In this document: one piece after another, positions 3,135-64,000 of the stretch
Numbering within the stretch: the first letter of the stretch is position 1
Layout of the letters: each line of letters starts with the position of its first letter
NCBI GenBank assembly: GCA_964348275.1
Contig: CAYGBT010000007.1
Location: 3,046-67,045 of the forward strand
DNA: 64,000 bases
Reading direction: 5' to 3'
From: an uncultured bacterium
Lineage (GTDB): Bacteria > Methylomirabilota > Methylomirabilia > Methylomirabilales > CSP1-5
The notes under the pieces: generated by a model
The model's input: the letters and a program-made list of their open reading frames with translations, nothing else
Told to the model about the DNA's origin: nothing
Database searches by the model: none
Translations under genes and position numbers: made by a program

Positions 3135-4108
<974 letters not shown>

Positions 4109-5610: not shown

Positions 5611-5828
5611 GGGTACCAAAGGCGGGCGAAATCAATAATGGCGAGACGATGGAACGCTTGTGCCCGCGGGCTATGATCACCCCGGTGGTATCTTAGTACC
5701 TGCTTAGAGTCGAGGGTTGAGGGTTAAGTGTCGCACGACTGCGGAAAGGGTCACGGCGGTGCTATGGTGTATCCCGGTCCCGCCACCCCCTGTGACGCCC
5801 AAACTGAGAATTCGATGCGCCGGCGATT

Positions 5829-5915
5829 GTGCCGGAGGGGAGCACCGGGCTATGCGCTATAAGCCATGTACCTTCCTGGGGGATGTCAAGATTCGAGACC
5901 TAACCCTGAACCCGC
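5829..5915. repeat. R1-type intergenic repeat
   Basis: GTGCCGGAGGGGAGC..GCGCTATAAGCCATG..GTCAAGATTCGAGACC, just downstream of the NHL gene stop. Confidence 0.6.
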
Positions 5916-7650: not shown

Positions 7651-7847
7651 GTCAGAGTTTTCTGATCGCTAATGGCGGTGCCGAGGGTGAGCTTCTGCGT
7701 ATCGTCACCTCAGTTTCATTGAACTATTGGCTCGGGGGGCTTGCCGTCCCTCAGTAATGCATCACTCACGGACAACCCGAAGGGTCACCTGGTGGGTCAT
7801 TGTTACCCTGTTAGACGCACTTCCTGTCAAGCCCAAACTGCGATGAT

Positions 7848-7938
7848 GGCGGAGGGGGGCAAAGGGTGATGCCGATCCCCGTTCCATCCCGGGGCGATGG
7901 AAGTTCGGCCAACAATCGACTTGACCCCTTTCCCTCAC
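7848..7938. repeat. R2-type imperfect-palindrome repeat
   Basis: Arms GGAGGGGGGCAAAGGG and CTTGACCCCTTTCCCTC flank a GTTCCATCCCGG core. Confidence 0.6.
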
Positions 7939-8699: not shown

Positions 8700-8962
8700 C
8701 ATACCGGTTTTAACAGAATAAAAGCGCCCTCCCGGGCCTATGGTACCCAAGAAGGCGGTGCAACTCTTATGCCAGCGATCGGCTAGGGCCTATCCCTCCC
8801 CCGGTTCTTCAGTACGGTCTGCTACGGGCTACCCGCTAGAAGCCATATGCCTCTTCTTTCTGGGGACCTTCGTCTTGTCCCGGGGTACGTGCCTGCCAGG
8901 TGCTCGGGGCAACCGCACTCTCCAAATCTTCTTTCTTGGCTTCTGTAGCTTTCCCACGGAAA

Positions 8963-9349: not shown

Positions 9350-9434
9350 CCGCTCCTCGCGCGCGCGATCGATACTCCTCCAAAAAGTAAAACGCCTTCA
9401 CGGCTGTGCTTCACCGCAAAGGCGCTGCAATCAG

Positions 9435-9515
9435 TGTGCCGGAGGGGAGCTACGAGCTATGCGCTATAAGCCATAAGCCTTCCTTGGCACTGTCAAGATT
9501 CAAGAGCTGACCCTC
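9435..9515. repeat. R1-type intergenic repeat
   Basis: GTGCCGGAGGGGAGCTACGAGCTATGCGCTATAAGCCATAAGCC..GTCAAGATTCAAGAGCTGACCC. Confidence 0.6.
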
Positions 9516-9871
9516 AACCCCCTGGAATACCTATCGAAACCTATCGCAACCGTCCTGTTGCGGATCACGATCCATAATGCGATGTCTTTGGTCGGAGGAA
9601 GTGACCGCCGCACTACGGAAACCGAGGTTCCGGTGCCGTGGCGGTAGGTGACACGAATCGATGAGCCTTTCGGAGGGACTTTCCCTCTCCGCCCATCACC
9701 GAAAACAATCTGTGCCTTACCGTCTGGAGCGTGGTGGAGCATATACACACAGGCCTTGGGTCCATACGAGCGCAGGTCTCTTACGCGCCTCCACTTCTGC
9801 GAGCCTATCGTCACTTCGAGAGCGGATGGCGGGCGGCGACGAATTCGTCCACGAATTCGGACTTTTCGCAA
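9500..9871 (-). pseudogene. Isolated fragment resembling a phage/contractile-injection baseplate assembly protein
   Basis: W.rV.dL...GP...Y.l....DG.a.i.FGDG..G..PP.G..I.VtYRhGtG matches, from memory, the conserved segment of much larger baseplate proteins. Confidence 0.35.
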
Positions 9872-10038
9872 GTCTTTTCCCCCTCACAAAAGCACGTAGA
9901 TGCTTTGGGGTGGCCTTGATTGGGCCGGAGGGGGGTGAAGCGCTATGCCTCCCATGGTTCGATCATTGCTTATCCTAAGTAGCAAATCGCAAACCTGCCC
10001 CCAATTCCCCTCCGCCTCTATTTTCCTCATGTCTCGCG

Positions 10039-10686: not shown

Positions 10687-10845
10687 GTCGAAACCCTCGC
10701 GGGGCGCGGAAATATTGTCCAACCGTCACTCGCCCACCACTCGTCACGCTGCATTTTGAACCATTATACACACCAACGCCCTCCCAGGTCATCCCCGCCC
10801 GAGAGGGCGTCTGAATGTTTGATGTGCCTTGGATCGTGCCGGAGG

Positions 10846-10930
10846 GGGGCAAAGGGCTATGCCAGTCCCGGTTCCATCCCGAAGACTGCCCGAAGCGTCA
10901 CATGTAAAGCTTTGACCCCTTACCTCCGTT
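10846..10930. repeat. R2-type imperfect-palindrome repeat
   Basis: Arms GGAGGGGGGCAAAGGG and CTTTGACCCCTTACCTCC pair with small bulges. The copy lies 50 nt downstream of the cytochrome c stop. Confidence 0.6.
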
Positions 10931-11457: not shown

Positions 11458-11824
11458 ACTGATCTCCTTGTGTCGTGATCGACGATACGGGGGCGCGTGA
11501 CGTGAATGATTCGTCCGTCGGTGAAGAGTACCAGTCACATCACGAAGATGGACGTTTACCGAACGACCTCAGACAGTTGTCGGCATCCTCGACAAACTTC
11601 CTGCTTCATCTTTACATTGTAACCAGACCGAGAGGACGTCAAGGCCCCTGTCACGACAAATGTGTATACCGGACAATCTCCTTGCGGGACCTGATGTATG
11701 TCAAACGTGAGGCTGTCCGACATCAGGAAAGGGGAAAATTCGATTCTGGGAAGGCGGCCAGAATGTATCTCAGGCCGTGGTTCGGCTGTCAAGGAGTGTT
11801 AATGATTGGTGTGCCGTCGGTTTC

Positions 11825-11870
11825 GCCGGAGCGGGGCGCAGGGCTATGCCGATCCTGGTTCCATCGGTAC
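11825..11870. repeat. R2-type repeat fragment fused to an R1 copy
   Basis: GCCGGAGCGGGGCGCAGGGCTATGCCGATCCTGGTTCCATCGG. Confidence 0.5.
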
Positions 11871-11880
11871 TACCCGCCAC

Positions 11881-11945
11881 GGGCTATGCGCTATAAGCCA
11901 TGCGCCTTCCTTGGGAATGTCAAAATTCAAGACCTGACCCCATCG
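11881..11945. repeat. R1-type intergenic repeat
   Basis: GGGCTATGCGCTATAAGCCATGCGCC..GTCAAAATTCAAGACCTGACCCC. Confidence 0.6.
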
Positions 11946-12107
11946 CATGACCCCATCGCAGGGACCCCATCGCAGGTTCCATCCACGCGCGTAGGAAGGC
12001 TGGGCACGAACTGGACGGCGAGACGGCAGCGCGGGAACGGAGGTATTAGTCAACCAAGGACTTGACCCCACCCACTTACGAGCGCCGGGGCGCGGGACCT
12101 TCGGGTG

Positions 12108-12305: not shown

Positions 12306-12468
12306 CTAGTTTCCTCCTTGGCGTCCACATGGGTTGGGGAACGCTTGAAGCTTACTTGCCTCGCCTACCCGTCGTACGAAATATGGCGCAGCAGGTGCGA
12401 GATTTCAACCCCTTCAAGTCAAAACGCCGCTGCGGGGTGTACATCGCCCGAGAAGGCGTCGCGTGTGT

Positions 12469-12520
12469 CAGAGGTGGGCGCAGGGCTATACCGATCCTGG
12501 TTCCATTACATCGATCCCCG
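12469..12520. repeat. R2-type repeat
   Basis: GGTGGGCGCAGGGCTATACCGATCCTGGTTCCATTACATCG, immediately downstream of the 12543 stop. Confidence 0.5.
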
Positions 12521-14022: not shown

Positions 14023-14086
14023 ACCGATGGGCTCTTGCGAGAAGGCCACCCACGACAATCGCTAGGAGCTAAGTGTGCCGTCGATT

Positions 14087-14182
14087 GTGCCGGAGGGGGG
14101 CAAAGGGCTATGCGCTATAAGCCATAAGCCTTCCTTGGCAATGTCAAGATTCAAGACCTGAGCCCCACCCCTTGCCCCCAAT
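14087..14182. repeat. R1-type imperfect-palindrome repeat
   Basis: Arm GGAGGGGGGCAAAGGG pairs with CCCTTGCCCCC. The core is GCGCTATAAGCCATAAGCC..GTCAAGATTCAAGACC. Confidence 0.6.
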
Positions 14183-14453: not shown

Positions 14454-14789
14454 TCACCCAAGCTGTTCCAGAATCGCCTTGACCTTCCGTTTGAGGTTCG
14501 GCAGTTCTCGGTCTATCACACGCCATACGATGTCCAGGTCGATCCCGAAATACTCATGCACCAAGACGTTCCGCATATCCATAATGTCCAACCATGGAAC
14601 CTCCGGGTGACGGTCCCGCAATTCCGGCGACAGGGCCCGAGCAGCCTCGCCAATGATTTGGATATGCCAGACCATCCAGTTTTGGATGAGTTCATCGCTC
14701 CGAAATGCTTTCTCCCCACGAACCGCGTAGCGCTCGATATGTGATATGGCTTGGAAGATATGTTCAAGGCGCCGGCGATCATCCCTCAT
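14454..14789 (-). CDS. hepT: HepT-like (DUF86) toxin
   Basis: RNVLVHEY (Rx4HxY) motif and a 4-nt overlap with the upstream MNT gene. Confidence 0.9.
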
Positions 14790-15076
14790 AGGGGCACGGC
14801 CTCTCTCAGGACCTCCTCACGAATAGATTCCCGCAACCCCTTTTCCGTAACCACGTCGACCCTTCTCCCCAGCAATTGATTGAGTTCCCGCCACAGGCCA
14901 GCCAGGTCGAAGAGGCTCCGCCCTTGATCCATTTCCACGAGCAAGTCGATGTCGCTGTCTCCGTCTGCCTCGCCGCGAGCCACTGAGCCAAAGATGCGCA
15001 CGTTCCGCGCCCCACGTTTCGCAGCGATGCGGAGGATTTCATCCCGCTTAGACTTTAATAGCTCTTCAACCGTCAC
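14786..15076 (-). CDS. mntA: MNT nucleotidyltransferase antitoxin
   Basis: [18 protein letters not shown] motif. Confidence 0.9.
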
Positions 15077-15505: not shown

Positions 15506-15637
15506 TTAGTACTCCTCCTGTGTAACCGGTTCAGCAAGGTCCGGGTAGCGCGTGACGATCGCAAAGCGAGTCAGGCGGCGGAGAAAGCGATCAAGGCTGT
15601 TCTCCTGCACCTGAGGATTTCGTTCCCGTACACTCAC
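15506..15637 (-). pseudogene. Remnant of a HEPN-domain partner of the upstream nucleotidyltransferase
   Basis: A 43-codon ORF whose GTG overlaps the MNT stop (GTGA), ending ..AIVTRYPDLAEPVTQEEY like a HEPN C-terminus. Further HEPN-like sequence continues upstream in this frame without a start codon. Confidence 0.35.
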
Positions 15638-16047
15638 GATCTGAGAGCGCTGCTCCGACTCCTGAAGAATGCAGGGGAAGCTGTCCCTGCGGAAGTGGAG
15701 GAGGCGGCATATACCACCTTTCCTTCCGTCAGGGCGGGATGAATCACTAATGCCGGATCATCACGATGCTTCCCAACATCTTCAGAGGTGACCACGACGA
15801 CATCGACTCCCCTGCGCACGCCTTTCAGATTCATGAAGTTCATGTAAATCTCTTCTGTCAGGCGGCCCCGGTGAAAGTTTCCACTTTTGATCACCAGTAA
15901 GTCCACATCGCTGTTTAGCCCCATCTTGCCCCGGGCCGCTGAGCCAAAGAGGACGATTTTGTCCGACTTTGCCACCTCGACGATCCGCTGGATGATCTCG
16001 CCCAGCGTCTCCTGAGTGACTTTTTGATTGGCAATTGTTTTCTTCAC
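15634..16047 (-). CDS. Nucleotidyltransferase (MNT-like) domain protein
   Basis: LFGSAARGKMGLNSDVDLLV motif. I prefer the GTG at 16047; the ORF track start at 16161 lies in repeat DNA. Confidence 0.75.
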   Translation of the reverse strand: MKKTIANQKVTQETLGEIIQRIVEVAKSDKIVLFGSAARGKMGLNSDVDLLVIKSGNFHRGRLTEEIYMNFMNLKGVRRGVDVVVVTSEDVGKHRDDPALVIHPALTEGKVVYAASSTSAGTASPAFFRSRSSALRS

Positions 16048-16286
16048 CCTTCGGACCTCGCTGAATCTTTTGTGCAGAAAGTCGAGACCCCGGACCGAGG
16101 GGGTCAAATCTTTTGTTGACAATTGTTCTCCGAAACGAAAAAACACCGGGGAGTGTGACAAGCGCTCGCCCGGTGCCCCCTCTTCGGCTCGTAGCTCGTC
16201 GCCAGAATCTTGCCAATAAATTAGGGGGTTTGGGGCTGATTGTCAATGGAGCAATAGTCGAGAGTTGAGAGGTGTGAGGTAACAGT

Positions 16287-17549: not shown

Positions 17550-17706
17550 AAGCGGGGATTATAGCAGGGAGGGGGATGTTGTTGAGAGCAGATAGTTGAG
17601 AGGGGAGGGTGGAGAGCCCACAGATAGTTCAGAGTTTAGGGTTCAGACCGGGGGGTTGGGTCCAGTCAGCGGCCCTCTCCGGAGGGGGTGTGCAAAATTT
17701 TCGCAC

Positions 17707-17734
17707 TTGACAGATGATTCCTTATGAATATATT
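17707..17734 (+). promoter_or_regulatory. Promoter of sRNA copy 1
   Basis: TTGACA, 16 nt, TATATT, preceded by the near-palindrome GTGCAAAATTTTCGCAC. Confidence 0.6.
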
Positions 17735-17741
17735 CACCGTG

Positions 17742-17903
17742 AGCCCCAAGAGGTTCGATCTGATCTCCACAACCGGGTCTTACGGCCTGGCGGGATCGGC
17801 GGAACCTGATGCTCCCTCCCAATCATTGATAATCAGGGGGGGAAAGAACAGGGACCGACCGCCTAAGGTGAAAGATCAGAACGGGTCACTTGGGGCTTTT
17901 TTT
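17742..17903 (+). ncRNA. Structured sRNA of unknown family, copy 1 (short form)
   Basis: The 5-prime AGCCCCAAG pairs with the 3-prime CTTGGGGCT, followed by T7. An internal hairpin CCGGGTC-TTAC-GGCCTGG is present and there is no ORF. Confidence 0.6.
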
Positions 17904-17926
17904 GTTGATAGCGGACCGAGGGAAGG

Positions 17927-18367
17927 TCAGTAACAGTGCCGCTGCCAGGCGCCCGGCACCAAGACCTGATAATAGGTCGTAAAGCCGTTTTCCTGGCGGG
18001 ACCGCGTCTCCCAGCGTCCCGCCACCCAAACGTCCCGGCAAACCGGCACCTGGGGATAGGCCGGCTGATAGACTACGGGGGGGCCATAGACGACCGGGGG
18101 CGGTTCGACGGGGCTCACCACAGGCGCGTAGGTGACCGGCGGAGCATAGACCACGCGGGGAGTGGCGAGGGCGTCGAGGACCAGGAATGTCGCCGCCCCG
18201 GCCAGAAATCCCCCGAGGAAGTGGCCATGGCCGTCGTGGTGGTCGTGGTGCCTGAAGTGGCTGTAATGGCGGTGATGCCCGTGGCGCCAGCCTCTCGCTT
18301 GGGCCGGCAGACTCATCACGCCCAGCACGAGACTCCCGATGACGAGGCCCACTGCAACGCGTTTCAT
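17927..18367 (-). CDS. Secreted His-rich / Pro-rich protein with a conserved Cys-containing C-terminal domain (paralog 1)
   Basis: Signal peptide MKRVAVGLVIGSLVLG, an HHRHYSHFRHHDHHDGHGH tract, and a paralog at 21985-22506. Confidence 0.7.
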   Translation of the reverse strand: MKRVAVGLVIGSLVLGVMSLPAQARGWRHGHHRHYSHFRHHDHHDGHGHFLGGFLAGAATFLVLDALATPRVVYAPPVTYAPVVSPVEPPPVVYGPPVVYQPAYPQVPVCRDVWVAGRWETRSRQENGFTTYYQVLVPGAWQRHCY

Positions 18368-18460
18368 TGTTTTCGCCCCCTTTGCCCACCTGGGAGCCGA
18401 GAGGCGGCCCCCGCATGCCGGGTCTGCCAGCCCTCTCATCTTAAGACGACGCCCCACTCA

Positions 18461-18489
18461 ATTTTATTTCATCGCCGACCCAGCGTCAA
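18461..18489 (-). promoter_or_regulatory. Putative promoter of His-rich paralog 1
   Basis: Minus strand reads TTGACG, 17 nt, TAAAAT. Confidence 0.5.
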
Positions 18490-18519
18490 GAAGCTCCGCG
18501 CCGGGGAACCGAAAACGGA

Positions 18520-19500
18520 TCAGTCCTTGTGGTGACCCTTTACCTTGTAGGCCCCAGGTCCCAGGTCGAGGTCGATTTCCGCCCAGATCGTCAGTTGCAC
18601 CCGTTCTTTCTGTGGGGGATCCGTCTTGATTATGATGGTCCGAAAGAACTTCCCGGATGGCTCTTCGTGCAAGTTCGGGTCAAACTCCACCAGCAGCACC
18701 GCTTCATCCCCGGGCTGAAGCCGCTTCTTACTCACGCGGGCTTCTGTGCATCGGCAGCTCGTCGGTGTGCTCGTAATGGTGATCAGCTGCTCCCCGGCAT
18801 AGAGAAACGGAAACTCGTGTTTGACGATCCCCCCACTCTGTTTGACCACGCCGAAGTCGTATTCCGTCTCGGCGAAACGGAAATTGCCGATTCCATTGTT
18901 GTATTTTGCGTCCCTGCTGACTTTCATGAAATCCTCTTCCGACAGCACGTTCCCCCGAACCCGGAGTTCAGCGACCGTGCCGTTTCTGATCGTTCGCATC
19001 GTTCTGGACAACCGGCCTTCCGGAGGAGCACTTGTTACCAGATACACCGCTCTCATGATCCGTCCCACATCGTCCGGTCCGTGGAAGAGCGGATCGAACT
19101 CTACATTGACTGTGAAACGTTCCCCGGGCTTGACGGCGCGATGCCAATTTTTCGGGACGTCCATCCCGAAAGCGGGAGAGACATCGCCATCGGCAAGCGC
19201 GATGGTTGCTTTGGTGCAGCCGCACGAGGTAAACGCGCCCTTGAGGATCAGATCCTCGCTTCCGCCGTTTTGCAAGGTAAAGGTGTGCCGGACGTTTCCG
19301 CCTCGGATGTTGACATTCCCCCAGTCATGCTCCAATGTCTCGGCGGACGTGACCCGTCCCGAATTGGCAACCTGTGTTATTTCATCGCCTCCAGAGAATA
19401 CGCCGCTCACAACGAATGCAACGACGATCAATCCCATCGCAATAAGCAGAAAGAGGTTTCCCTTTGACATGGACCGTTTCTTTCCCTTGGATGTTTTCAT
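18520..19500 (-). CDS. DUF1573 domain protein (two copies of the domain)
   Basis: HDWGNV..FTLQNGG..L.I....TSCGCT and YDFGVV..H.F......L.I....TSCRCT. Confidence 0.85.
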   Translation of the reverse strand: MKTSKGKKRSMSKGNLFLLIAMGLIVVAFVVSGVFSGGDEITQVANSGRVTSAETLEHDWGNVNIRGGNVRHTFTLQNGGSEDLILKGAFTSCGCTKATIALADGDVSPAFGMDVPKNWHRAVKPGERFTVNVEFDPLFHGPDDVGRIMRAVYLVTSAPPEGRLSRTMRTIRNGTVAELRVRGNVLSEEDFMKVSRDAKYNNGIGNFRFAETEYDFGVVKQSGGIVKHEFPFLYAGEQLITITSTPTSCRCTEARVSKKRLQPGDEAVLLVEFDPNLHEEPSGKFFRTIIIKTDPPQKERVQLTIWAEIDLDLGPGAYKVKGHHKD

Positions 19501-19661
19501 ACCGACGCGATCCCTCCTCGAGTGAGACCATTCATGAATCTACTCCCAGGCCGAACCGTGACAAGGCGTGCGTCGCGTATTCTGATTCATGGCCATCTCA
19601 CCACTATTTGTTGTCAAATAGTATATGCCAGTCGCGAGCTAAATGCCACCCCCGTCAAGAA

Positions 19662-19706
19662 CCCTTCGACCCAGCGTGCCCCGAGCTTAGTCGAGGGGCT
19701 CAAGGC
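19662..19706 (-). promoter_or_regulatory. R3 element: conserved ~45 nt module abutting a -35-like hexamer
   Basis: CCCTTCGAC..GCCCCGAGCTTAGTCGAGGGGCTCA; TTGACG (minus strand) lies 3 nt away. Confidence 0.45.
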
Positions 19707-19765
19707 AGGCTGAGAGTCCAAAGACGGTTCAAGGTTCACGGTCGAGACATGCAAAATTTTCTCTC

Positions 19766-19793
19766 TTGACACGTCAGGGCACAGAAATATATT
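19766..19793 (+). promoter_or_regulatory. Promoter of sRNA copy 2
   Basis: TTGACA, 16 nt, TATATT. Confidence 0.6.
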
Positions 19794-19800
19794 CAAGGTA

Positions 19801-19963
19801 AGCCCCAAGAGGTTCGATCTGATCTCCACAACCGGGTCTTACGGCCTGGCGGGATCGGCGGAACCTGATGCTCCCTCCCAATCATTGATAATCAGGGGGG
19901 GAAAGAACAGGGACCGACCGCCTGAGGTGAAAGATCAGAACGGGTCACTTGGGGCCCTTTTTT
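19801..19963 (+). ncRNA. Structured sRNA of unknown family, copy 2 (short form)
   Basis: Nearly identical to copy 1 across the transcribed part; ends CTTGGGGCCC followed by T6. Confidence 0.6.
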
Positions 19964-20046
19964 GGTTCATGGTTCATAGTTCATGGTTCATAGCCGACAG
20001 TTCATGGTGGATGGTTCATGGTGGAGCTTGGAGTATAAGCCTATGG
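19964..20046 (+). repeat. Z module: GGTTCAT heptamer array plus unique tail
   Basis: An inverted copy lies at 36231-36312. A partner array CTGAACCATGAGCCGTGAACCATGAACC at 20050-20078 can pair with it. Confidence 0.6.
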
Positions 20047-20120
20047 ACCCTGAACCATGAGCCGTGAACCATGAACCAAGACGGTCATCGGTCGCCGCCT
20101 GAGCGGCTGGGTCTGTGAAC

Positions 20121-20756
20121 TCACTGTTGACTGCCCACTCGACGGGCAAGAACTCCCATCCAGGTGTAGCTCCCTGACGGCGGTACTTCAAAAAAAGTCA
20201 AATCTTCACTTAACCAATAGTGCGCCGTGAGGCCAAGTCGAGCGATTTCCTCCTCCACAAGGGGTTTGTCCACATCCTGAAATCCAGACAGCACTAGTGA
20301 GGTCTCGTCTCCACTCAACCGAACGAGGTCAGCCATTTTGTCGTTCAGTATGGGCATAGGTAAATTCGCCAGCACCAAGTCAAAAGGGCCAGCCACCGCC
20401 TCTACTGACCCTCGAATGAGCAGCAACCGGTCCTTCAAGTGGTTAAGCTCAGCATTCGCCCGGCTGGAGACGCAAGCCTGGGGACTGATATCGATAGCCA
20501 CGGCACGGTCCACCCCAAGTTTCAATCCTGCGAGCGCCAGGACCCCACTACCGCAGCCCACGTCCACCAGGGTTCGACACCGTCGTCGTTTGAGGTCTTG
20601 GAGCATGAGGCGGAGGCACAACTTCGTGGTGGGATGGCTGGGCGGGAAGGTTCTGCTGGTTTTCAGAAGAATCCCGACCGGGGCCCTAGAAACCAGAAAG
20701 CGCCACCAGGGAGAACCTACAGCGAAAGAGCCATCGATGCGGTAGCAAGTAAGCAC
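20121..20756 (-). CDS. PrmA-like class I SAM-dependent methyltransferase
   Basis: HPTT motif and VDVGCGSGVLALAG SAM-binding motif. Confidence 0.75.
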   Translation of the reverse strand: MLTCYRIDGSFAVGSPWWRFLVSRAPVGILLKTSRTFPPSHPTTKLCLRLMLQDLKRRRCRTLVDVGCGSGVLALAGLKLGVDRAVAIDISPQACVSSRANAELNHLKDRLLLIRGSVEAVAGPFDLVLANLPMPILNDKMADLVRLSGDETSLVLSGFQDVDKPLVEEEIARLGLTAHYWLSEDLTFFEVPPSGSYTWMGVLARRVGSQQ

Positions 20757-20849
20757 GACGTGACGTCATCGCGCACGGAAGGCATCGCGCGAGAAAAAAA
20801 GGGACCAGAATCTTGCCAATACCTTAGGGACTCGTGGCCTCCGTGTCAA

Positions 20850-20894
20850 CCCTTCGACGGAGCCTGCGCCGAGCTTAGTCGAGGAGCTCAGGGC
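20850..20894 (-). promoter_or_regulatory. R3 element abutting a -35-like hexamer
   Basis: CCCTTCGACGGAGCCTGCGCCGAGCTTAGTCGAGGAGCTCAGGGC; TTGACA (minus strand) is directly adjacent, then 17 nt, then TAAGGT. Confidence 0.45.
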
Positions 20895-20901
20895 TTGAAG
20901 C

Positions 20902-20937
20902 AAAAGCACCGGGGGGCTTTTTAGCCCGCCCGGTGCT
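20902..20937 (-). terminator. Terminator hairpin downstream of the RRM gene
   Basis: AGCACCGGGGGG..CCCGCCCGGTGCT with a T4 run on the minus strand. The same stem recurs at 24517-24555. Confidence 0.5.
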
Positions 20938-21003
20938 CCATTTGCTGCCGGACTCTCTCCTTTTAGCGCTTCGCCCGCCGGTCGGCCCGGGTTCACTCGG
21001 CCA

Positions 21004-21321
21004 TCAGTACCTATCCCGGCGGCCGCCGCGGCGGCCGAAGCCGCCACGGTCAGATCCGCGTCCCCGGGGCTGCTGCTCGCGGGCCATGTTGACCGTGAGG
21101 GTGCGCCCACCGACCTCGAAACCGTTCAGAGCATTGATCGCCGCCTGCGCCTCTTCTTGGCTGGCCATGTTCACAAAGGCGAAGCCGCGGGGGCGGCCGG
21201 TATCTCGATCGGTGACGATCTTGATTTCAAGCACCTCGCGGCCACCTTCCTCAAAGAGCGTGCGGAGTTGGTGCTCATCCACGCTGAAGGGGAGATTGCC
21301 CACGTACACTTTTGATCTCAT
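21004..21321 (-). CDS. RRM-type RNA-binding protein with a Gly/Arg-rich tail
   Basis: RNP motifs KVYVGNLPF and RGFAFVNM. Confidence 0.9.
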   Translation of the reverse strand: MRSKVYVGNLPFSVDEHQLRTLFEEGGREVLEIKIVTDRDTGRPRGFAFVNMASQEEAQAAINALNGFEVGGRTLTVNMAREQQPRGRGSDRGGFGRRGGRRDRY

Positions 21322-21380
21322 GCCTCTTTCTCCTTTTCCCGATACCGATCCTCGGTGCTGCTCTTGGCCGGACCGCGCTC

Positions 21381-21671
21381 TTACGGTCGGTCATCGTTAC
21401 GCTTGAGGGCACGGTTCTGTTGTTTACGACGCCGGCGAGCAGCCTCGCGAATCTTACGGCGCTTCCGCTCTCCTGGCTTCTCATAGCTCTTTTTCCGTTT
21501 TACATCCCGGAGGATCCCGTCACGTAGCACGAGGCGCTTGAAGGCGCGGAGCGCCGATTCGACCCCGCGTTCGTCCACGATGACCTCGAGGGGACGGCGA
21601 TGCCTGGGGTGCGCACGCGCCTCTCTCTCCTGGTCATCACGCCGCCGATACTCTGCCATTCTCCCTCCCAT
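21381..21671 (-). CDS. rpsU: 30S ribosomal protein S21
   Basis: ALRAFKR..LRDVKRKKSYEKPGERKRRK. The N-terminal extension makes the start uncertain (21671 or 21659). Confidence 0.85.
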   Translation of the reverse strand: MGGRMAEYRRRDDQEREARAHPRHRRPLEVIVDERGVESALRAFKRLVLRDGILRDVKRKKSYEKPGERKRRKIREAARRRRKQQNRALKRNDDRP

Positions 21672-21712
21672 CGCCTTCCATAGTCACAGGCTCGATCGCC
21701 CATAATTGGCAC

Positions 21713-21743
21713 AAAAAAACCGCGGGACTTCAGTCCTCGCGGG
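21713..21743 (-). terminator. Intrinsic terminator inside the rpsU upstream region
   Basis: Minus strand reads CCGCGAGGA-CTGAAG-TCCCGCGG followed by T7, about 40 nt before the rpsU start. Confidence 0.5.
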
Positions 21744-21790
21744 CTCGTTAACGTAAAAAACCGGATCCGTGAGAATCTACAGTCAAATCT

Positions 21791-21819
21791 ACAATAGATC
21801 TTTCTTCGGGTACTGTCAA
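21791..21819 (-). promoter_or_regulatory. Putative promoter upstream of the rpsU leader
   Basis: Minus strand reads TTGACA, 17 nt, TATTGT. Confidence 0.5.
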
Positions 21820-21984
21820 TTCCTTCTTTTTTCGCACGGGCGAGGCAGCCAAGACTAAGTTGCTGAAGAGCATATAGAGGTTTCACCCGAAGCTCGACGG
21901 GCGCAGAAGTGCAAAAGGGCTGAAATCTCTTGTTGACTAAGTCCTGCCTCGCCCCGGATCGGCGCAACCCGCGGACAGGGGAGG

Positions 21985-22506
21985 TCAGTAGCACTGCCGC
22001 TGCCAGGTGCCCGGCACCAGGACCTGATAATACGTGGTAAAGCCGTCCTGCTCTCGCGCCTGGACCTCCCACCGCTCCGCGACCCAGACATTGCGGCAGA
22101 CCGGCGCGACGACCGGGGGAGCGTAGACCACGCGGGGAGTGGTGAGGGCGTCGAGGACCAGGAACGTGGCCGCCCCGGCCACGAATCCCCCGAAGAAATG
22201 GCCGTGCCCATTGTGGTGGCGGTGGTGCCTGACGTATGTGCGGTGGCCGTGGTGCCTGACGTGTGTGCGGTGGCCGTAGTGCCTGATGTGTCTCTGCGGG
22301 CGGTGTCGCCTGACGTGTCTCTGCGGGCGGTCTTGCCTGACGTGTCTCTCTGGGCGGCGGGCCCGGACGTGTCTCTCTGGGCGGTGTTGCCTGACGTGTC
22401 TCTGCTGGCGGTAGCGCCCGTGATGCCGGCTTCTCGCCTCGGCCGGCAGACTCATCCCGCCCAGCATGAGACTCCCGATGACGAGGCCCACTGCTACGCG
22501 TCTCAT
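21985..22506 (-). CDS. Secreted His/Arg-rich protein, paralog 2, with an expanded 9-aa tandem repeat
   Basis: The signal peptide and C-terminal domain are collinear with 17927-18367. Seven to eight copies of a ~27 nt repeat lie at about 22226-22415. Confidence 0.7.
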   Translation of the reverse strand: MRRVAVGLVIGSLMLGGMSLPAEARSRHHGRYRQQRHVRQHRPERHVRARRPERHVRQDRPQRHVRRHRPQRHIRHYGHRTHVRHHGHRTYVRHHRHHNGHGHFFGGFVAGAATFLVLDALTTPRVVYAPPVVAPVCRNVWVAERWEVQAREQDGFTTYYQVLVPGTWQRQCY

Positions 22507-22599
22507 GATCCTCCTCTTTCGCTCATCCGGCGCCCGAGGGGGGGCCGGCGCAGGCCGGGGGTACATACCGCTCTACTTGCTTGGACGACGCCTCGTCGC

Positions 22600-22629
22600 A
22601 TTTTATTTCATCTTCTTATCCCTACGCAA
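22600..22629 (-). promoter_or_regulatory. Putative promoter of His-rich paralog 2
   Basis: Minus strand reads TTGCGT, 18 nt, TAAAAT. The ATGAAATAAAAT context is shared with paralog 1. Confidence 0.45.
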
Positions 22630-22630
22630 G

Positions 22631-22675
22631 CCCTTCGACGGAGCCTGCCCCGAGCTTAGTCGAGGGGCTCAGGGC
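22631..22675 (-). promoter_or_regulatory. R3 element abutting the -35 of paralog 2
   Basis: CCCTTCGACGGAGCCTGCCCCGAGCTTAGTCGAGGGGCTCAGGGC. Confidence 0.45.
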
Positions 22676-22777
22676 AAGGGGGGAGTCGATAGATTGTTGA
22701 GAGTCAAGGGTTGAAAGCTGAAAGCCACTACATAGCGGTGAGGGGAGAGTTGAGGGCAGTGTGCAAAATTTTCGCAC

Positions 22778-22805
22778 TTGACAGGTCAGGGCGCATAAAT
22801 ATATA
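22778..22805 (+). promoter_or_regulatory. Promoter of sRNA copy 3
   Basis: TTGACA, 16 nt, TATATA, preceded by GTGCAAAATTTTCGCAC. Confidence 0.6.
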
Positions 22806-22812
22806 TAAGGTA

Positions 22813-22993
22813 AGCCCCGAGAGGTTCGATCTGGTCCCCATAACCGGGTCTCGTGATCCGGCGGGAACGGCGCTTCCTGGAACTCGGGAAACCGAGATCT
22901 CACCTGCGGTCCTGGAGGAGCGGAGGGGAGACAAAACAGGAACCGGCCGCCAGAAGGGAGAGATCAGAAGGAATCACTTGGGGCTCAGTTTTT
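22813..22993 (+). ncRNA. Structured sRNA of unknown family, copy 3 (long form)
   Basis: Same closing helix and CCGGGTC-TCGT-GATCCGG hairpin, plus an inserted CTCGG-GAAA-CCGAG hairpin. It ends in T5. Confidence 0.6.
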
Positions 22994-23043
22994 GTTGAGA
23001 GTCTGGAGTCGAGAGATAACCGTTCGGAGTTCGGGCTTACGAG

Positions 23044-23100
23044 CAATTCGAAATCCGAAATTCGAAATCGGAAATCGGAAATCGGTCGTCGGTCGTCGGT
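23044..23100. repeat. Degenerate heptamer tandem array (TCGAAAT/CGGAAAT/CGGTCGT)
   Basis: Eight consecutive 7-nt units can be read directly. Confidence 0.7.
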
Positions 23101-23132: not shown

Positions 23133-23719
23133 GAGTCCGAAGTCCAACGACAGAAGAGCAAGGGCTCGGTGGGACCTTCCTCGGCGGCGCCATTATTCTC
23201 CGATGACTTGATACGTAGAGGCCACGTTACGCACGTGTAGGCGTTGTCATTCGCCAGTGCGGGCCCCCCCACCCGCGCTGCGCTTCGGCGGCGGGACCCC
23301 GGCCGCACGCAAGCCAGATGTCGCCTGCCTCGGAAGGAACCCCCTCCTCGCCCTTCGTAACTTCGGTTGTCGGCCACTTGGTCCCGCCTTCAGAGTCGAG
23401 GGTTCAGCGTTACGAGCAATTCGAAATCCGAAATTCGATATCGGAAATCAGTGGTCGGCCATCGCTATTGCCCCCTTCGCGGCGGCGAGGGGAAGGCCGA
23501 CCTCGGAGGAAGGCGAAACTCGCGCCTCCGTAGAAAAGTCTTGGATCACAAGACACTCACGAACAACATCCGAGGTGCCAGGCGCCACCAACCTTCTCGG
23601 TCACAACACCGGCTTCCGTCCCGGTGCGCCAGGCCCAGGTGAGACCAACGCGCTTGAGCTGTTTCGCCGACGATGAGGAGGGCTTTCCCGAGTTGCCTCC
23701 ACCTACGTCGGACTTCGGC
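23133..23719 (+). repeat. B element copy 1 (~590 bp non-coding repeat, modules X-rev, spacer, Y)
   Basis: Collinear with the reverse complement of 36361-36960. The ends CCGAAGTCCAACG and CGTCGGACTTCGG are inverted. Confidence 0.6.
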
Positions 23720-23826
23720 GAGCGGTTCGGCCGATCTCACCGTCGAGGCCTCAGTCGAGCCGTCACCGGACATCGCTTACCTGGTTTAGGGCTCACAGAC
23801 GGTTCAGGGTTCAGAGTTTAATGATA

Positions 23827-23928
23827 GGGTCTTGGGTGTTAGGTCTTAGGTTCTGGGTGTTGAACCTGACATCTGAATGCCGAGATCTCCAAAACCCAAC
23901 ACCTAACACCCAAGACCTAATACCTAAC
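23827..23928. repeat. Inverted pair of GGTSTTR heptamer arrays forming a long hairpin
   Basis: 23828-23844 is the perfect complement of 23901-23917 (17 bp), with imperfect extension on both sides. Confidence 0.7.
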
Positions 23929-24026
23929 AGTGGTCGGAAAATGCCTACCTGGCTCAGGGTTCAGTGTAGAAAGCTAAGAGCGGAGAGTGGAGGGCTCAGA
24001 GCCCAGTGTCAAGTGGCTCGGAGGGC

Positions 24027-35809: not shown

Positions 35810-35937
35810 CGCCCCCTCCTCTTTTCCACGCGTGCTGCAAGAGACCAATCAGCACACCCTTCGTGAGATTTGTCTCCGCATAATACCAAAATTCCGCACG
35901 CGTATGCCTGCATTGCGTCAAAATTTTTCTCTCTCCC

Positions 35938-35967
35938 TTGACAGGTCAGCGCCTACCTCAATATTAA
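35938..35967 (+). promoter_or_regulatory. Promoter of sRNA copy 4
   Basis: TTGACA, 18 nt, TATTAA. Confidence 0.55.
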
Positions 35968-35972
35968 GGGCG

Positions 35973-36153
35973 AGTCCCAAGAGGTACGATCTGGTCCCCA
36001 TCACCGGGTCTTGTGATCCGGGGGGAACGGTGGGACCTGGAACTCGGGAAACCGAGCTCCGAATTCCGGTCCGAACGGAGCGGGAGGAGGAGAAAACAGG
36101 GACCGGCCGCCTGGGTGGAAAGATCAGAACGGATCACTTGGGGCTCATTTTTT
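35973..36153 (+). ncRNA. Structured sRNA of unknown family, copy 4 (long form)
   Basis: AGTCCCAAG..CTTGGGGCT closing helix followed by T6. It has hairpin CCGGGTC-TTGT-GATCCGG and the CTCGG-GAAA-CCGAG insert. Confidence 0.6.
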
Positions 36154-36230
36154 GGTTCAGGGTGCAAGGTTCAGAGTTCAGGGTTGACAGTTCAGAGACG
36201 GTTCAGCGTTCAGAGTTGAGCGCTCAGAGT

Positions 36231-36312
36231 CCATAGGCTTATACTCCGAGCTCCACCATGAACCATCCACCATGAACTGTCGGCCATGAACCATGAACTA
36301 TGAACCATGAAC
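36231..36312 (-). repeat. Z module, inverted copy
   Basis: Reverse complement of 19964-20046. Confidence 0.6.
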
Positions 36313-36360
36313 CGACTCGGTCGTCACCCGTCGGTCGTTGGCCATTGCCCGGCGAGTTCA

Positions 36361-36960
36361 GAGTCCAAAGTCCAACGCACAAAGCCCGAAGCAGGTGGGG
36401 GCGGCTCGGGAAAGCCCTCCTCGTCGTTGGCGAAACAGCTCAAGTGGGTTGATCTCACCTGGGCTTAGGGCACCGGGACGGAAGCTGATTTTTTGATCCA
36501 GTAGTTTGGTGGACCCCGGTATCCCGAATGTTGCTCGCGAGTGTCTTGTGATCCAAGACTTTTCTACGGAGGCGCGAGTTTCGCCTTCCTCCGAGGTCGG
36601 CCTTCCCCTCGCCGCCGTGCACGGGGCAATAGCGATGGCCGACCACTGATTTCCGATTTCGAATTTCGGATTTCGAATTGGTCGTAACGCTGAACCGTCG
36701 ACTCTGAAGGCTGGACCAAGTGCCCAACGATCGAACTTCCGAAAGGCGAGGAGGGGGTTCCTTCCGAGGCGGGCGACATCTGGCTTGCGTCGGCTCCGAA
36801 GGCATTCGGAAAGCGCAGCGCAGGTGGGGGTGGCCCGCACTGGCGAATGACAACGCCTATGCATGCGTAAAGTTGCCTCTGCGCGTCAAGTCCGCGGAGA
36901 ATAATGGCGCCGCCGAGGAAGGTCCCTCCAAGCCCTTACTCTTCTGTCGTATGACTTCGC
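36361..36960 (-). repeat. B element copy 2 (inverted)
   Basis: Reverse complement is collinear with 23133-23719. Confidence 0.6.
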
Positions 36961-41285: not shown

Positions 41286-41877
41286 TCCGATGTCCGACGA
41301 CAAAAGAAGAAGGACTCGGTGTGGGACCTTCCTCGGCGGCGAGGGGAAGGCCGACCTCGGAGGAAGGCGTAAACCGCTTTCCGGGCCGTCGAGCAGGACA
41401 CGCACGCCCCTCGCCCCGGGCCTCCTGTTGTTTCAGCCGAGGGAGGACCGTTCCGCTCGTCGGCGGAAAATTCCACTGGTCAATACTTCGTCAAGTTGGG
41501 TGTTCCGCACGAACGCCCTTCGGCAAGGCAACAGGAGGGCCACCCCCACCTACGCTGCGCTTTCCGAATGCCTTCGGAACCGTCGAAAACCAGTTTCCGC
41601 CTTCCTCGCGCATCCGGCCCCCCTCGGCTTACCAACCTAAATCTTGACGTTTCTAACGCTAGGCCAGCGCGTGCATGCCCCGAGCGACATTGCCGAAAGT
41701 CCGAAAGCCTTCGGACCGACTCAGGGTCGCCGCGGGCCCGAAGGGTTCCGGGCTCTTGCGGAGAGGCCTGGAGCGAGGGGCCAAAGGTGTTGGTCCAACA
41801 GATTCAACAAGCCGAGGAGTTTTTCCGACGACGAGGAGGGGTTTCCCAAGTCGTCCACTCCTGCGTCGGACATCGCC
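41286..41877 (+). repeat. B element copy 4 (divergent, recombined)
   Basis: Shares the left end TCCGATGTCCGACGAC, the GGCGAGGGGAAGGCCGACCTCGGAGGAAGGCG block, the X-module block and the right end GCGTCGGACATCG. Confidence 0.45.
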
Positions 41878-42077
41878 TGGCGGGTTCAGTCAGTAGAGGC
41901 TCAAGACCCGGCGGGGGCCTTCTAGAGCCCTCCCGGTGTCCTAATCCTGCCAGGTCGTCCACCCTCCCGTGTCAATCTGACAAATGAGCACTCAACCAAT
42001 ATACGTAAGTCCTTAATTAATCGAATCTTTTCATTTATCCCGCCCAACCACCCCCCTCCCGTCGGCTGGCAGGAAAA

Positions 42078-44208: not shown

Positions 44209-44280
44209 CAGTTCACGGTCCAAAGTTCACGGTTCACGGTTCACCGTTCAGAGTTGAGGGTCCAGAGTTCAGGGCTTAGG
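44209..44280. repeat. Degenerate GTTCACG/GTTCAGR heptamer array
   Basis: Direct reading. Confidence 0.6.
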
Positions 44281-44285
44281 TGCCT

Positions 44286-44780
44286 CAGTCCGACGTCCTA
44301 TGTCCGAAGTCGCCAAAAGGCGGGGAGGGGGTTCCTTCCGAGGCAGGCGGCATCTGGCTTGCGTCGGTTCCGAAGGCATTCGGAAAGCGGAGCGCAGGTG
44401 GGGGTGGCCCGCACTGGCGAAATACAACGCCTAAGCTTGCGTAAGGTTGCCCCTCTGCACCAAGTCCTCGGAGAATTATGGCGCCGCCGAGGAAGGTCCC
44501 TCCGAGCCTCTAGTCGACGGCCATCGCTATTGCCCCTTTCGCGGCGGCGAGGGGAAGGCCGACCTCGCAGGAAGGCAAAACTCGCGCCTCCGTAGAAAAG
44601 TCTTGGATCACAAGATACTCACGAACAACATCCGAGGTACCGGGGGCACCAAACTACTGAATCGCAAAATCGGCTTCCGTCCCGGTGCGCCAGGCCCAGA
44701 TGAGATCAACCCGCTTGAGCTGTTTTGCCGACGACGAGGAGAGGTTTCCCGAGTCGCCCCCACCTACCTCGGACTTCGCC
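44286..44780 (+). repeat. B element copy 3 with module X inverted relative to Y and no spacer
   Basis: 44300-44510 matches 36740-36935 on the same strand, whereas 44515-44780 matches 23457-23720 on the same strand. Confidence 0.55.
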
Positions 44781-44932
44781 CGGCGGGCTCAGGGTTCACA
44801 GACGACGGAAATTCGAATTTCGCAATTCGAAATTGAAAACATCCTGGTTGACGTCCGCCTGGCTCCTGTGATAGGCAGAGAGCCGCACCCCGTCTGTGTT
44901 GTCCTTTCCACTCCCTCGGGACATAAGACGAC

Positions 44933-63030: not shown

Positions 63031-63061
63031 AACCCGTTTACGCCGTGCTATTCGCCACGTG

Positions 63062-64000
63062 CTATACGCTACGTGCTCCCCTCCGCTGGAGGGCCAGCTG
63101 ATAGAGCCGCTCATACTCTCTGGCGGAACGCTCCCAGGAAAAGTCGGCCGCCATGGCGTTCTGCACGATGCGGTTCCAAACAGCCTTCTGGTGGAAAAGG
63201 CCAATCGCCTGATGGACGGTTCGGAGGAGCTCCTCGTCGTCAGCCCGGGGGAACGTGAACCCGTTCCCCGTGCCCGCACCGGGATCAAAGGGGATGATCG
63301 TTTCATCCAATCCTCCTGTGGCTCGGACGATGGGGATGGTGCCATAGGCCAGGCTGTACATCTGACTGAGGCCGCTGGGCTCATACCGCGACGGCATAAG
63401 AAAAATATCGGCCCCCGCCTTGATCTTGTGACTCAGGACGACATCAAATCCGATCCGGACCGCTAGCTTGTCGGGATATTTTTGCTGTAAGTCCTTGAAT
63501 CTCTGTTCCAGCCCCACGTCCCCCATTCCCAGCAGGACCATCTGGAGATCGAGACTCAGGAGATCTTCGGCAATCCCAGCGACGAGGTCGATTCCCTTCT
63601 GGTACGCGAGCCGAGAGATCACACCGAAGAGAGGAACGTCCGGTCGCGTCGGCAGTGCCATCACCTGCTGTACATTCCGCTTGCAGGCAGCTTTGCCTGT
63701 AAAGTCCTCGGAACAATAGGAAGCTACGAGGTAGGGATCGGTACGAGGATTCCACTCGTGGTAGTCCACGCCGTTCAGCACGCCGTACAGATCCGCCGCC
63801 CGCTGCCGCAGCAACCCGTCCAAGCCGAAGCCGAACTCCGGCGTCTGGATCTCTTGACTGTACCTCGGACTCACAGTGTTCAGGAGGTCAGCGTACACCA
63901 ACCCAGCTTTCAGGAAATTTATCCTCCCCCAGAATTCCATTCCTTCGGGAGCAAATATCTCTTCTGACAGTCCGGTGAGGGCAAACCGCTCGGCGGAAAA
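63062..64000 (-). CDS. glgA: Glycogen synthase, C-terminal part (the gene continues beyond the window)
   Basis: The frame is open to the window edge; NTVSPRYSQEI, GL.NG.D...WNP and SRYEPSGL motifs. Confidence 0.9.
   Translation of the reverse strand, partial: FSAERFALTGLSEEIFAPEGMEFWGRINFLKAGLVYADLLNTVSPRYSQEIQTPEFGFGLDGLLRQRAADLYGVLNGVDYHEWNPRTDPYLVASYCSEDFTGKAACKRNVQQVMALPTRPDVPLFGVISRLAYQKGIDLVAGIAEDLLSLDLQMVLLGMGDVGLEQRFKDLQQKYPDKLAVRIGFDVVLSHKIKAGADIFLMPSRYEPSGLSQMYSLAYGTIPIVRATGGLDETIIPFDPGAGTGNGFTFPRADDEELLRTVHQAIGLFHQKAVWNRIVQNAMAADFSWERSAREYERLYQLALQRRGARSV

Follow-up and report, generated by a model that had tools for sequence, protein, structure and literature searches.

A structured non-coding RNA gene family of NC10/Methylomirabilales with homologues beside hpt in Acidobacteria

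Bacterial 6S RNA is about 180 nt long and forms a largely double-stranded rod with paired ends (PMC11077062); the RNA family described here has this length and this rod shape. 6S RNA is defined by length and structure, not by sequence, and homology searches missed polymerase-binding RNAs confined to particular lineages, such as Ms1 (PMC11077062, PMC9130861). Our RNA resembles 6S and Ms1 in its length, in ends that pair in a long irregular rod, in the internal loop of many members and in a strong stand-alone promoter, and also in having an ancestral single-copy gene, a lineage-specific gene order and occasional paralogues. In contrast to 6S and Ms1, it contains a three-way junction with a side hairpin rather than a plain bubble, and it was not matched by the 6S covariance model at any threshold tried. 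The sequence of its closing helix is strongly conserved, unlike that of 6S, and its gene lies in an antisense setting linked to hpt, whereas that of 6S is linked to ygfA. Riboswitch-controlled antisense RNAs are a different kind of comparison; they reportedly include the B12-riboswitch antisense RNA AspocR of Listeria and the S-box antisense RNA of the Clostridium ubiG operon. As in those systems, a structured domain would start a transcript antisense to an operon and be followed by a terminator, and there is a shared metabolic theme (here purine/pyrimidine salvage); however, no known aptamer matched, and the terminator stem is the closing helix itself. Multi-copy small RNAs (Qrr1-5, the CcsR 'cuckoo' RNAs, NsiR1 and Yfr2) are likewise paralogues that each have a promoter and a terminator and whose copy number varies among close relatives, whereas our RNA is much longer, is almost fully paired without a conserved exposed seed, and was ancestrally a single copy at a locus shared across phyla. 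Ro-associated Y RNAs likewise pair their ends into a stem of conserved sequence that contains a small internal loop, vary in the upper part and occur as several paralogues in some bacteria. In contrast to them, our RNA matched neither Y_RNA nor YrlA of Rfam, the flanks examined contained no gene for Ro or RtcB, and the stem sequence of our RNA appears unrelated to the Ro-binding motif.

NC10/Methylomirabilales bacteria are nitrite-dependent methane oxidisers, and a search of the full-text literature found no paper on non-coding RNAs, small RNAs or 6S RNA in NC10. A preliminary description of a 64-kb stretch of DNA from this group (the window, that is, the whole stretch analysed) had reported four plus-strand copies of an RNA-like unit of unknown class. 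All four were confirmed on that strand, both by reading the sequence and with a covariance model, at the following positions.

17690-17734, plus strand: promoter of copy 1, with the near-palindrome GTGCAAAATTTTCGCAC (17690-17706), -35 TTGACA (17707-17712), a 16-nt spacer and -10 TATATT (17729-17734)
17742-17898, plus strand: RNA of copy 1, about 157 nt (part taken to 17904), short form; the T-run abuts the closing helix
19750-19793, plus strand: promoter of copy 2, with the TGCAAAATTTTC tract, -35 TTGACA (19766-19771) and -10 TATATT (19788-19793)
19801-19957, plus strand: RNA of copy 2 (part taken to 19963), short form, with T6 after it
22761-22805, plus strand: promoter of copy 3, with GTGCAAAATTTTCGCAC, -35 TTGACA (22778-22783) and -10 TATATA (22800-22805)
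22813-22986, plus strand: RNA of copy 3, about 174 nt (part taken to 22993), long form, with an extra CUCGGGAAACCGAG hairpin and T5 past a 3-nt spacer
35918-35965, plus strand: promoter of copy 4, with an A4T5 tract, -35 TTGACA (35938-35943) and -10 AATATT (35960-35965)
35973-36146, plus strand: RNA of copy 4, about 174 nt (part taken to 36154), long form, with T6 past a 2-nt spacer

We regard it as firmly established that these four units are a family of real, independently promoted, structured non-coding RNA genes that is new to Rfam. Each unit would be a complete gene, its product a stable RNA of about 155-175 nt with a high degree of structure. The covariance model built from the four copies (R1) scored 179-189 bits on each of them; copy 1 reached 180 bits with R1 and 147 bits with a broader model (R2). 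No fifth copy was found in the 64 kb with R1, with or without filters, or with R2, and a scan for tRNA and tmRNA genes found none. An identical copy 3 is present on a metagenome contig (L110). The RNAs of copies 1 and 2 are identical at 154 of 157 nt and their promoter regions at 36 of 52, with the -35, the -10 and the A/T tract surviving, and the similarity of their flanks is at random level. Therefore, the duplicated and conserved unit is exactly promoter plus RNA, indicating a functional gene rather than an inverted-repeat transposon. Across the copies, similarity continues for about 50 nt past the 5' inverted repeat, a stretch that coincides exactly with the promoter elements, and ends at the T-run. 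The unit had been described as free of ORFs. Mechanical ORFs do overlap copies 3 and 4, but they are not conserved between copies, since the short and long forms are split by a 17-nt indel; coding potential was rejected on the strength of this indel and of the compensatory changes described below. The ORFs at 17886-18416 (by copy 1) and 36358-36864 (by copy 4) are low-complexity junk and probably not genes in those frames.

A near-consensus sigma-70 promoter precedes all four copies, in agreement with the earlier claim that each has its own. Between 17 and 37 kb, the two top-ranking promoter-like sites are those of copies 1 and 2 (TTGACA-16-TATATT), each matching at 11 of 12 positions; that of copy 4 scored 10 of 12 in the promoter scan, and that of copy 3 (TTGACA-16-TATATA) was read directly from the sequence. 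In every lineage, the -35, the -10 and the upstream A/T tract stand at a fixed distance from the first paired base, and the promoter spacers diverge. The RNA gene looks like one of the most strongly promoted genes of NC10/Methylomirabilales. The near-palindrome upstream of the -35 in copies 1 and 3 had been proposed as an operator or UP element. GTGCAAAATTTTCGCAC is indeed exact in these two copies and occurs only there; copy 2 keeps TGCAAAATTTTC, and relatives keep only an A/T tract at this position. The operator option was not borne out, the palindrome not being conserved outside this lineage, and an UP-element-like A/T tract fits the data better.

Predicted folding energies were 4-5 standard deviations below those of dinucleotide shuffles. 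From the ends inwards, the fold consists of a closing rod (P1-P3) of 22-24 bp made by the 5' and 3' ends, with conserved A-A mismatches and an invariant G-U wobble, followed by a junction, asymmetric and bearing a side hairpin, and then by two short inner helices and a variable apical domain. The 9-bp helix that had been proposed between the two ends is present (the last pair of copy 2 is an A-C mismatch), as are the second long-range helix (UCUGAUC/GAUCAGA) and the CCGGGUC local hairpin, in which the three changes between forms all keep Watson-Crick or wobble pairing. A T-run straight after the closing helix, also part of the earlier account, is found in copy 1 but not in copies 2, 3 and 4, which have 1-3 nt in between. 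In most members of the wider family, the U-tract lies 2-5 nt from the helix, indicating a poor intrinsic terminator and fitting leaky or regulated termination or 3' trimming. NC10 members are 135-195 nt long and the Acidobacteria RNAs about 215 nt, and the closing rod is present in all members. Sequence conservation is concentrated in this rod, the side-hairpin stem and GAACCGGCC(R)CC, and the loops and the apical domain vary.

The proposed helices were upheld in alignments of homologues, with compensatory changes. In 25 distinct NC10 sequences, 94.4% of the cells of 39 modelled pairs were standard pairs versus approximately 52% when the partners were slid by one column, in an alignment that had been realigned to model R2 and so leans towards the modelled structure. 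Model-guided realignment was used because a MAFFT alignment of the divergent members mis-registers helix P3. Changes on both sides were observed at nine pairs in the 25 sequences, including G2-C to A-U, A7-U to G-C, U20-A to C-G and C24-G to U-A in the closing rod and others in the hairpin and in P4/P5; these changes can also be seen in the raw, unfitted sequences. The named strand folded better than its complement in 20 of 22 members (mean 14.8 kcal/mol), and by 39-44 kcal/mol in Acidobacteria. This folding bias, the G-U asymmetry with its invariant G12-U pair and the strand of the promoter rule out a leader or riboswitch in hpt sense.

Homologues were gathered from genome and metagenome collections, and relatives were found in NC10 and Acidobacteria. 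When species-representative genomes were scanned with a DNA pattern, true matches occurred only in Methylomirabilota/NC10 MAGs; among the 80 loci listed (93 stretches matched), the real matches belonged to three NC10 genomes, and most stretches were chance matches in high-GC genomes because the first pattern was too GC-rich. The metagenome pattern yielded 18 real NC10-type loci and 5 chance matches inside coding DNA, and the scan of viral contigs yielded no match. Further contigs were obtained via Hpt homologues (74-85% identity), and each carried a single copy at the same place, on the opposite strand between a gene for a 185-187-aa protein and hpt, the gene for hypoxanthine phosphoribosyltransferase. 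The 185-187-aa protein has a T7-endonuclease-I-like C-terminal domain by a weak match (PDB 3cae E=0.0016; PF05367), homologues of it are widespread, and a pyrE-like phosphoribosyltransferase gene lies upstream. The conserved gene order is accordingly T7-endonuclease-I-like gene, RNA on the opposite strand, hpt. At the loci checked (L041 and L121), the 3' end of the RNA abuts or overlaps the stop codon of the endonuclease-I-like gene. The start of the RNA is only about 18-70 nt from the hpt start codon and the promoter regions overlap, so that the hpt transcript must start within or cross the RNA gene. The CSP1-5 lineage has two diverged copies, one on each side of hpt. A remote NC10 lineage, at 56% protein identity, has an RNA gene of 194 nt between the endonuclease-I-like gene and hpt, with the ends AGCCCCAAGAGGUC...GGUCACUUGGGGCUC and a diverged interior. 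The earlier count of four copies thus holds for the present genome, whereas most relatives have one copy at the fixed hpt locus and the CSP1-5 lineage has two. Elsewhere in the window, AMP-binding, methylmalonyl-CoA mutase and B12-binding genes show about 87% amino acid identity to those of a Methylomirabilales contig.

The same endonuclease-I-like/hpt gene pair was found on two Acidobacteria contigs, L137 (annotated Blastocatellia) and L138 (JGI, same gene order). Between the two genes, a gene of about 215 nt lies antisense; its promoter is TTGACA/TACTAT and its ends are GAUCCCGAGAGGUU...AGAUCACUCGGGAUC, followed by a U-rich tail. These RNAs are predicted to form a long rod with a multi-branched top and GNRA-capped hairpins, and five compensatory pairs emerge from the two sequences alone. 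Both phyla share the closing-helix sequence CCCRAG-A-GGU / UC-A-CUYGGG, although the interior has diverged. In 1.14 Mb of fetched DNA, about half of it from unrelated bacteria, the motif pair CCCRAGRGGT...TCACTYGGG occurred at all true loci, on the right strand, and nowhere else. These comparisons firmly indicate that the ancestral gene is single-copy and lies antisense between the T7-endonuclease-I-like gene and hpt in at least two phyla. The family, absent from Rfam, shows as much structure as known RNA-protein or aptamer RNAs and extends to the same locus in Acidobacteria. In the Acidobacteria homologues, the predicted start is separated from the closing helix by an additional 5' hairpin, CUUGGUUGGCAACAACCAAG (L137 4876-4905; L138 ~4010-4040; minus strand), suggesting that the mature 5' end may come from processing.

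In the window, nearly all neighbouring genes had been placed on the minus strand, which was borne out, the exception being a plus-strand response-regulator gene about 570 nt downstream of copy 4. The RNA is antisense to both of its co-oriented flanking genes in six of the seven distinct contexts; copy 4 differs on the downstream side. The neighbouring proteins (MFS, DUF1573, PrmA-like methyltransferase, PAS kinase, HAD, RRM and S21) are encoded by ordinary chromosomal genes, and no common theme was found among the genes around the window copies. No reverse-transcriptase gene lies beside the copies, whose flanks encode MFS, DUF1573, methyltransferase, RRM, S21, HAD, phosphoribosyltransferases and the endonuclease-I-like protein; with the neighbours mostly on the opposite strand, this counts against a retron msr-msd. 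The positions of the copies are non-syntenic even with a close relative. As judged from its sequence, this genome carries duplicates of the promoter-plus-RNA unit at four intergenic sites other than the hpt locus, mostly antisense to the genes on either side. It provides a case of an RNA gene amplified as a self-contained promoter-RNA-terminator cassette and inserted antisense into operons.

Other repeats accompany this region. Intergenic tandem arrays of 7-nt repeats (TGGTTCA, GTTCAGA, GAAATCG, ACCATGA and others) occur at 19963-20078, 23045-23085, 23894-23929, 36154-36313, 36648-36679, 44210-44272 and 44808-44838, often directly after RNA copies, and a similar array follows the copy in a relative (L001). 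The array at 19963-20078, with direct and inverted 7-nt units, forms a long hairpin, which Rfam wrongly scores as the precursor of a plant microRNA. Between copies 2 and 3, the gene for an RRM-domain RNA-binding protein (21004-21671, minus strand) adjoins that for ribosomal protein S21, and an RRM gene is near the RNA copy of the same relative too. A predicted 193-aa protein with a hydrophobic N-terminus is encoded at 21985-22566 (minus strand), and its ORF includes seven tandem 27-nt (9-aa) His/Arg-rich repeats of the RHVRxxRPE type (22218-22412); a stretch beside copy 1 (17919-18367) is paralogous to this ORF. Dispersed duplicated segments of 140-200 nt with 84-92% identity (23450-23725 versus 44512-44786; 36739-36941 versus 44313-44515; 41316-41377 with 41814-41889) lie near the ends of the RNA-bearing region and partly over the start of a response-regulator gene.

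The preliminary description had left the class of the RNA unassigned and found it reminiscent of 6S-type RNAs. Rfam 15, which takes in CsrB/Rsm, Y_RNA/YrlA, SRP, retron msr and the known riboswitches as well as 6S (RF00013), gave no match overlapping any copy at the gathering score over the whole window. Likewise, no relevant match was obtained at E≤10 on 17600-23100 or on 176-201-nt single-copy slices, and none on the Acidobacteria and distant NC10 loci; what was left at E≤10 consisted of chance-level microRNA-type matches within the apical region or outside the copies. The earlier description of the class as unassigned remains correct. The likeness to 6S did not hold up as family membership, which is not supported given the lack of a 6S match, the nearly bubbleless members and the multi-branched Acidobacteria homologues. 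Most NC10 members have an asymmetric loop, with about 8 nt and the hairpin on one side and 10-13 nt on the other, and the 3' strand of this loop has a mean unpaired probability of 0.3-0.8. The two-sided central bubble is almost absent from the second CSP1-5 copy, L130 and L131, and a -10-like element sought by eye in the 3' strand of the internal loop, as in 6S mimicry, was not consistent across members.

As to function, we tentatively favour, from sequence comparison, a trans-acting RNA that binds a protein partner. Such an RNA would serve as a scaffold or decoy for a protein that recognises the junction and the closing helix, whose sequence is conserved; additional copies would increase the RNA dosage, and the paralogues would be diversified through the variable apical domain. 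Paralogues at unrelated loci keep both the sequence and the structure of the RNA, and the closing-helix sequence is kept across two phyla, indicating that the function lies in the RNA itself. A helix sequence conserved beyond the needs of pairing is typical of protein-recognised RNAs, and none of the RNA-protein family models among those tried matched. RNA polymerase, as for 6S or Ms1, could be the partner but is not the favoured one. We think it improbable that this RNA is the lineage's own 6S RNA or its counterpart of Ms1, in which case it would sequester RNA polymerase by mimicking an open promoter and would be present here as several paralogues. Such an identity would agree with a length of about 155-180 nt, with ends paired in a long rod and an internal loop in most NC10 members, with the failure of homology searches to find RNAs such as Ms1 (PMC11077062, PMC9130861), and with an ancestral single copy in a conserved gene order that has occasional paralogues, as in 6S-1/6S-2. 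However, there was no 6S match at E≤10 on single copies or at the Acidobacteria locus, a two-sided bubble is missing from some members, the homologues in Acidobacteria have a multi-branched fold, measure about 215 nt and carry GNRA hairpins without a central bubble, at least four copies would be unusual for 6S, and there is no link to ygfA. True 6S identity is unlikely. A family of base-pairing regulatory small RNAs with redundant or additive paralogues, like Qrr, AbcR and CcsR, that expose a seed to mRNAs is similarly doubtful. The multiple copies, each with its own promoter and terminator, point in this direction, and the purine-rich GGAGGGGA-type segment and the C-rich CUCCC could pair with ribosome-binding regions or with the C-rich loop of the second repeat family described below. 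Nevertheless, these two segments pair together inside the RNA, the parts conserved family-wide are helices with no conserved single-stranded segment, and an almost fully paired RNA of 155-220 nt is unlike typical seed-type small RNAs. A site complementary to the 15-nt apical loop of copies 1 and 2 was sought in the window, and none was found.

The tight linkage to hpt in two phyla, the overlapping promoters and the antisense setting in six of seven contexts suggest a local (cis) role and count against the trans-acting reading. We consider it possible, if less probable than a protein-binding RNA, that the gene is a structure-gated antisense regulator in cis, in which the fold decides whether the closing helix forms and terminates transcription, perhaps by sensing a purine-related metabolite. 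If the helix did not form, antisense read-through would reduce expression of the host operon through collision or the formation of a duplex. The endonuclease-I-like-hpt operon would have been the ancestral target, and the extra copies would put other operons under the same signal. This reading would best account for the offset position of the U-tracts, the link with hpt and the orientation rule. In six of the seven contexts, the RNA has co-oriented genes of the other strand on both sides; its transcript must overlap that of hpt, its 3' end reaches the upstream stop codon at the loci checked (L041 and L121), and its neighbours at the ancestral locus are nucleotide-salvage genes. The closing helix is the only terminator stem and the U-tract is often offset from it, and termination may therefore be tunable. 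Conserved junction residues with varying peripheral stems are also reminiscent of aptamers; however, no known aptamer class matches, and copy 4 points towards a co-directional operon. In riboswitches, the sequence of the P1 helix is not usually conserved, whereas P1 is the most conserved part here. A non-functional or selfish element of MITE or REP type, with terminal inverted repeats and only a resemblance to an RNA gene, is disfavoured and in our judgement very improbable. The 155-175-bp unit has imperfect 24-bp inverted termini, and its several intergenic copies differ in position between close relatives. In contrast to what such an element predicts, similarity runs past the 5' inverted repeat over the promoter and stops at the T-run, two phyla share an orthologue at one locus, paired bases have changed in a compensatory way, the G-U pairs are strongly asymmetric between the strands, and viral contigs gave no match. 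A bolder proposal, to which we give a rather low probability as a whole, is that the family is an undescribed class of structured RNA in at least two phyla. In it, the closing helix would be a conditional terminator, making the gene a metabolite- or protein-gated antisense switch anchored at hpt and copyable as a promoter-plus-RNA cassette; otherwise, the RNA would be a subunit of an RNA-protein complex that recognises the CCCRAG-A-GGU / UC-A-CUYGGG helix. Either a polymerase-binding RNA of this lineage or a gated antisense switch for purine salvage would, if true, widen the known range of bacterial RNA regulators.

Two other repeat families and a gene pair were observed in the window. The second repeat family, read on the minus strand, occurs at 3-75, 5816-5913, 9423-9520, 11850-11947 and 14074-14171, and more weakly at 8815-8859 and 63041-63085. 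It consists of CTTGAATCTTGACA, a 17-nt spacer and TGGCTTATAGCGCATAGCC (a hairpin), followed by a GUGC-UCCCCUCC-GGCAC stem-loop with a C-rich loop. It lies upstream of minus-strand genes and has the appearance of a promoter-and-leader module common to them, or of a further family of small RNAs. The third, a short family GCCGGAGGGGGGCAAAGGGCTATGCC...GGTTCCATC, occurs at 7842-7891, 9904-9967, 10818-10881, 11805-11868 and 12447-12510 in the gene-dense 6-14 kb. At 14454-15076 (minus strand), a nucleotidyltransferase (MNT-like) gene is paired with a HepT-like ribonuclease gene, a typical toxin-antitoxin module, and a second nucleotidyltransferase gene lies at 15634-16161.
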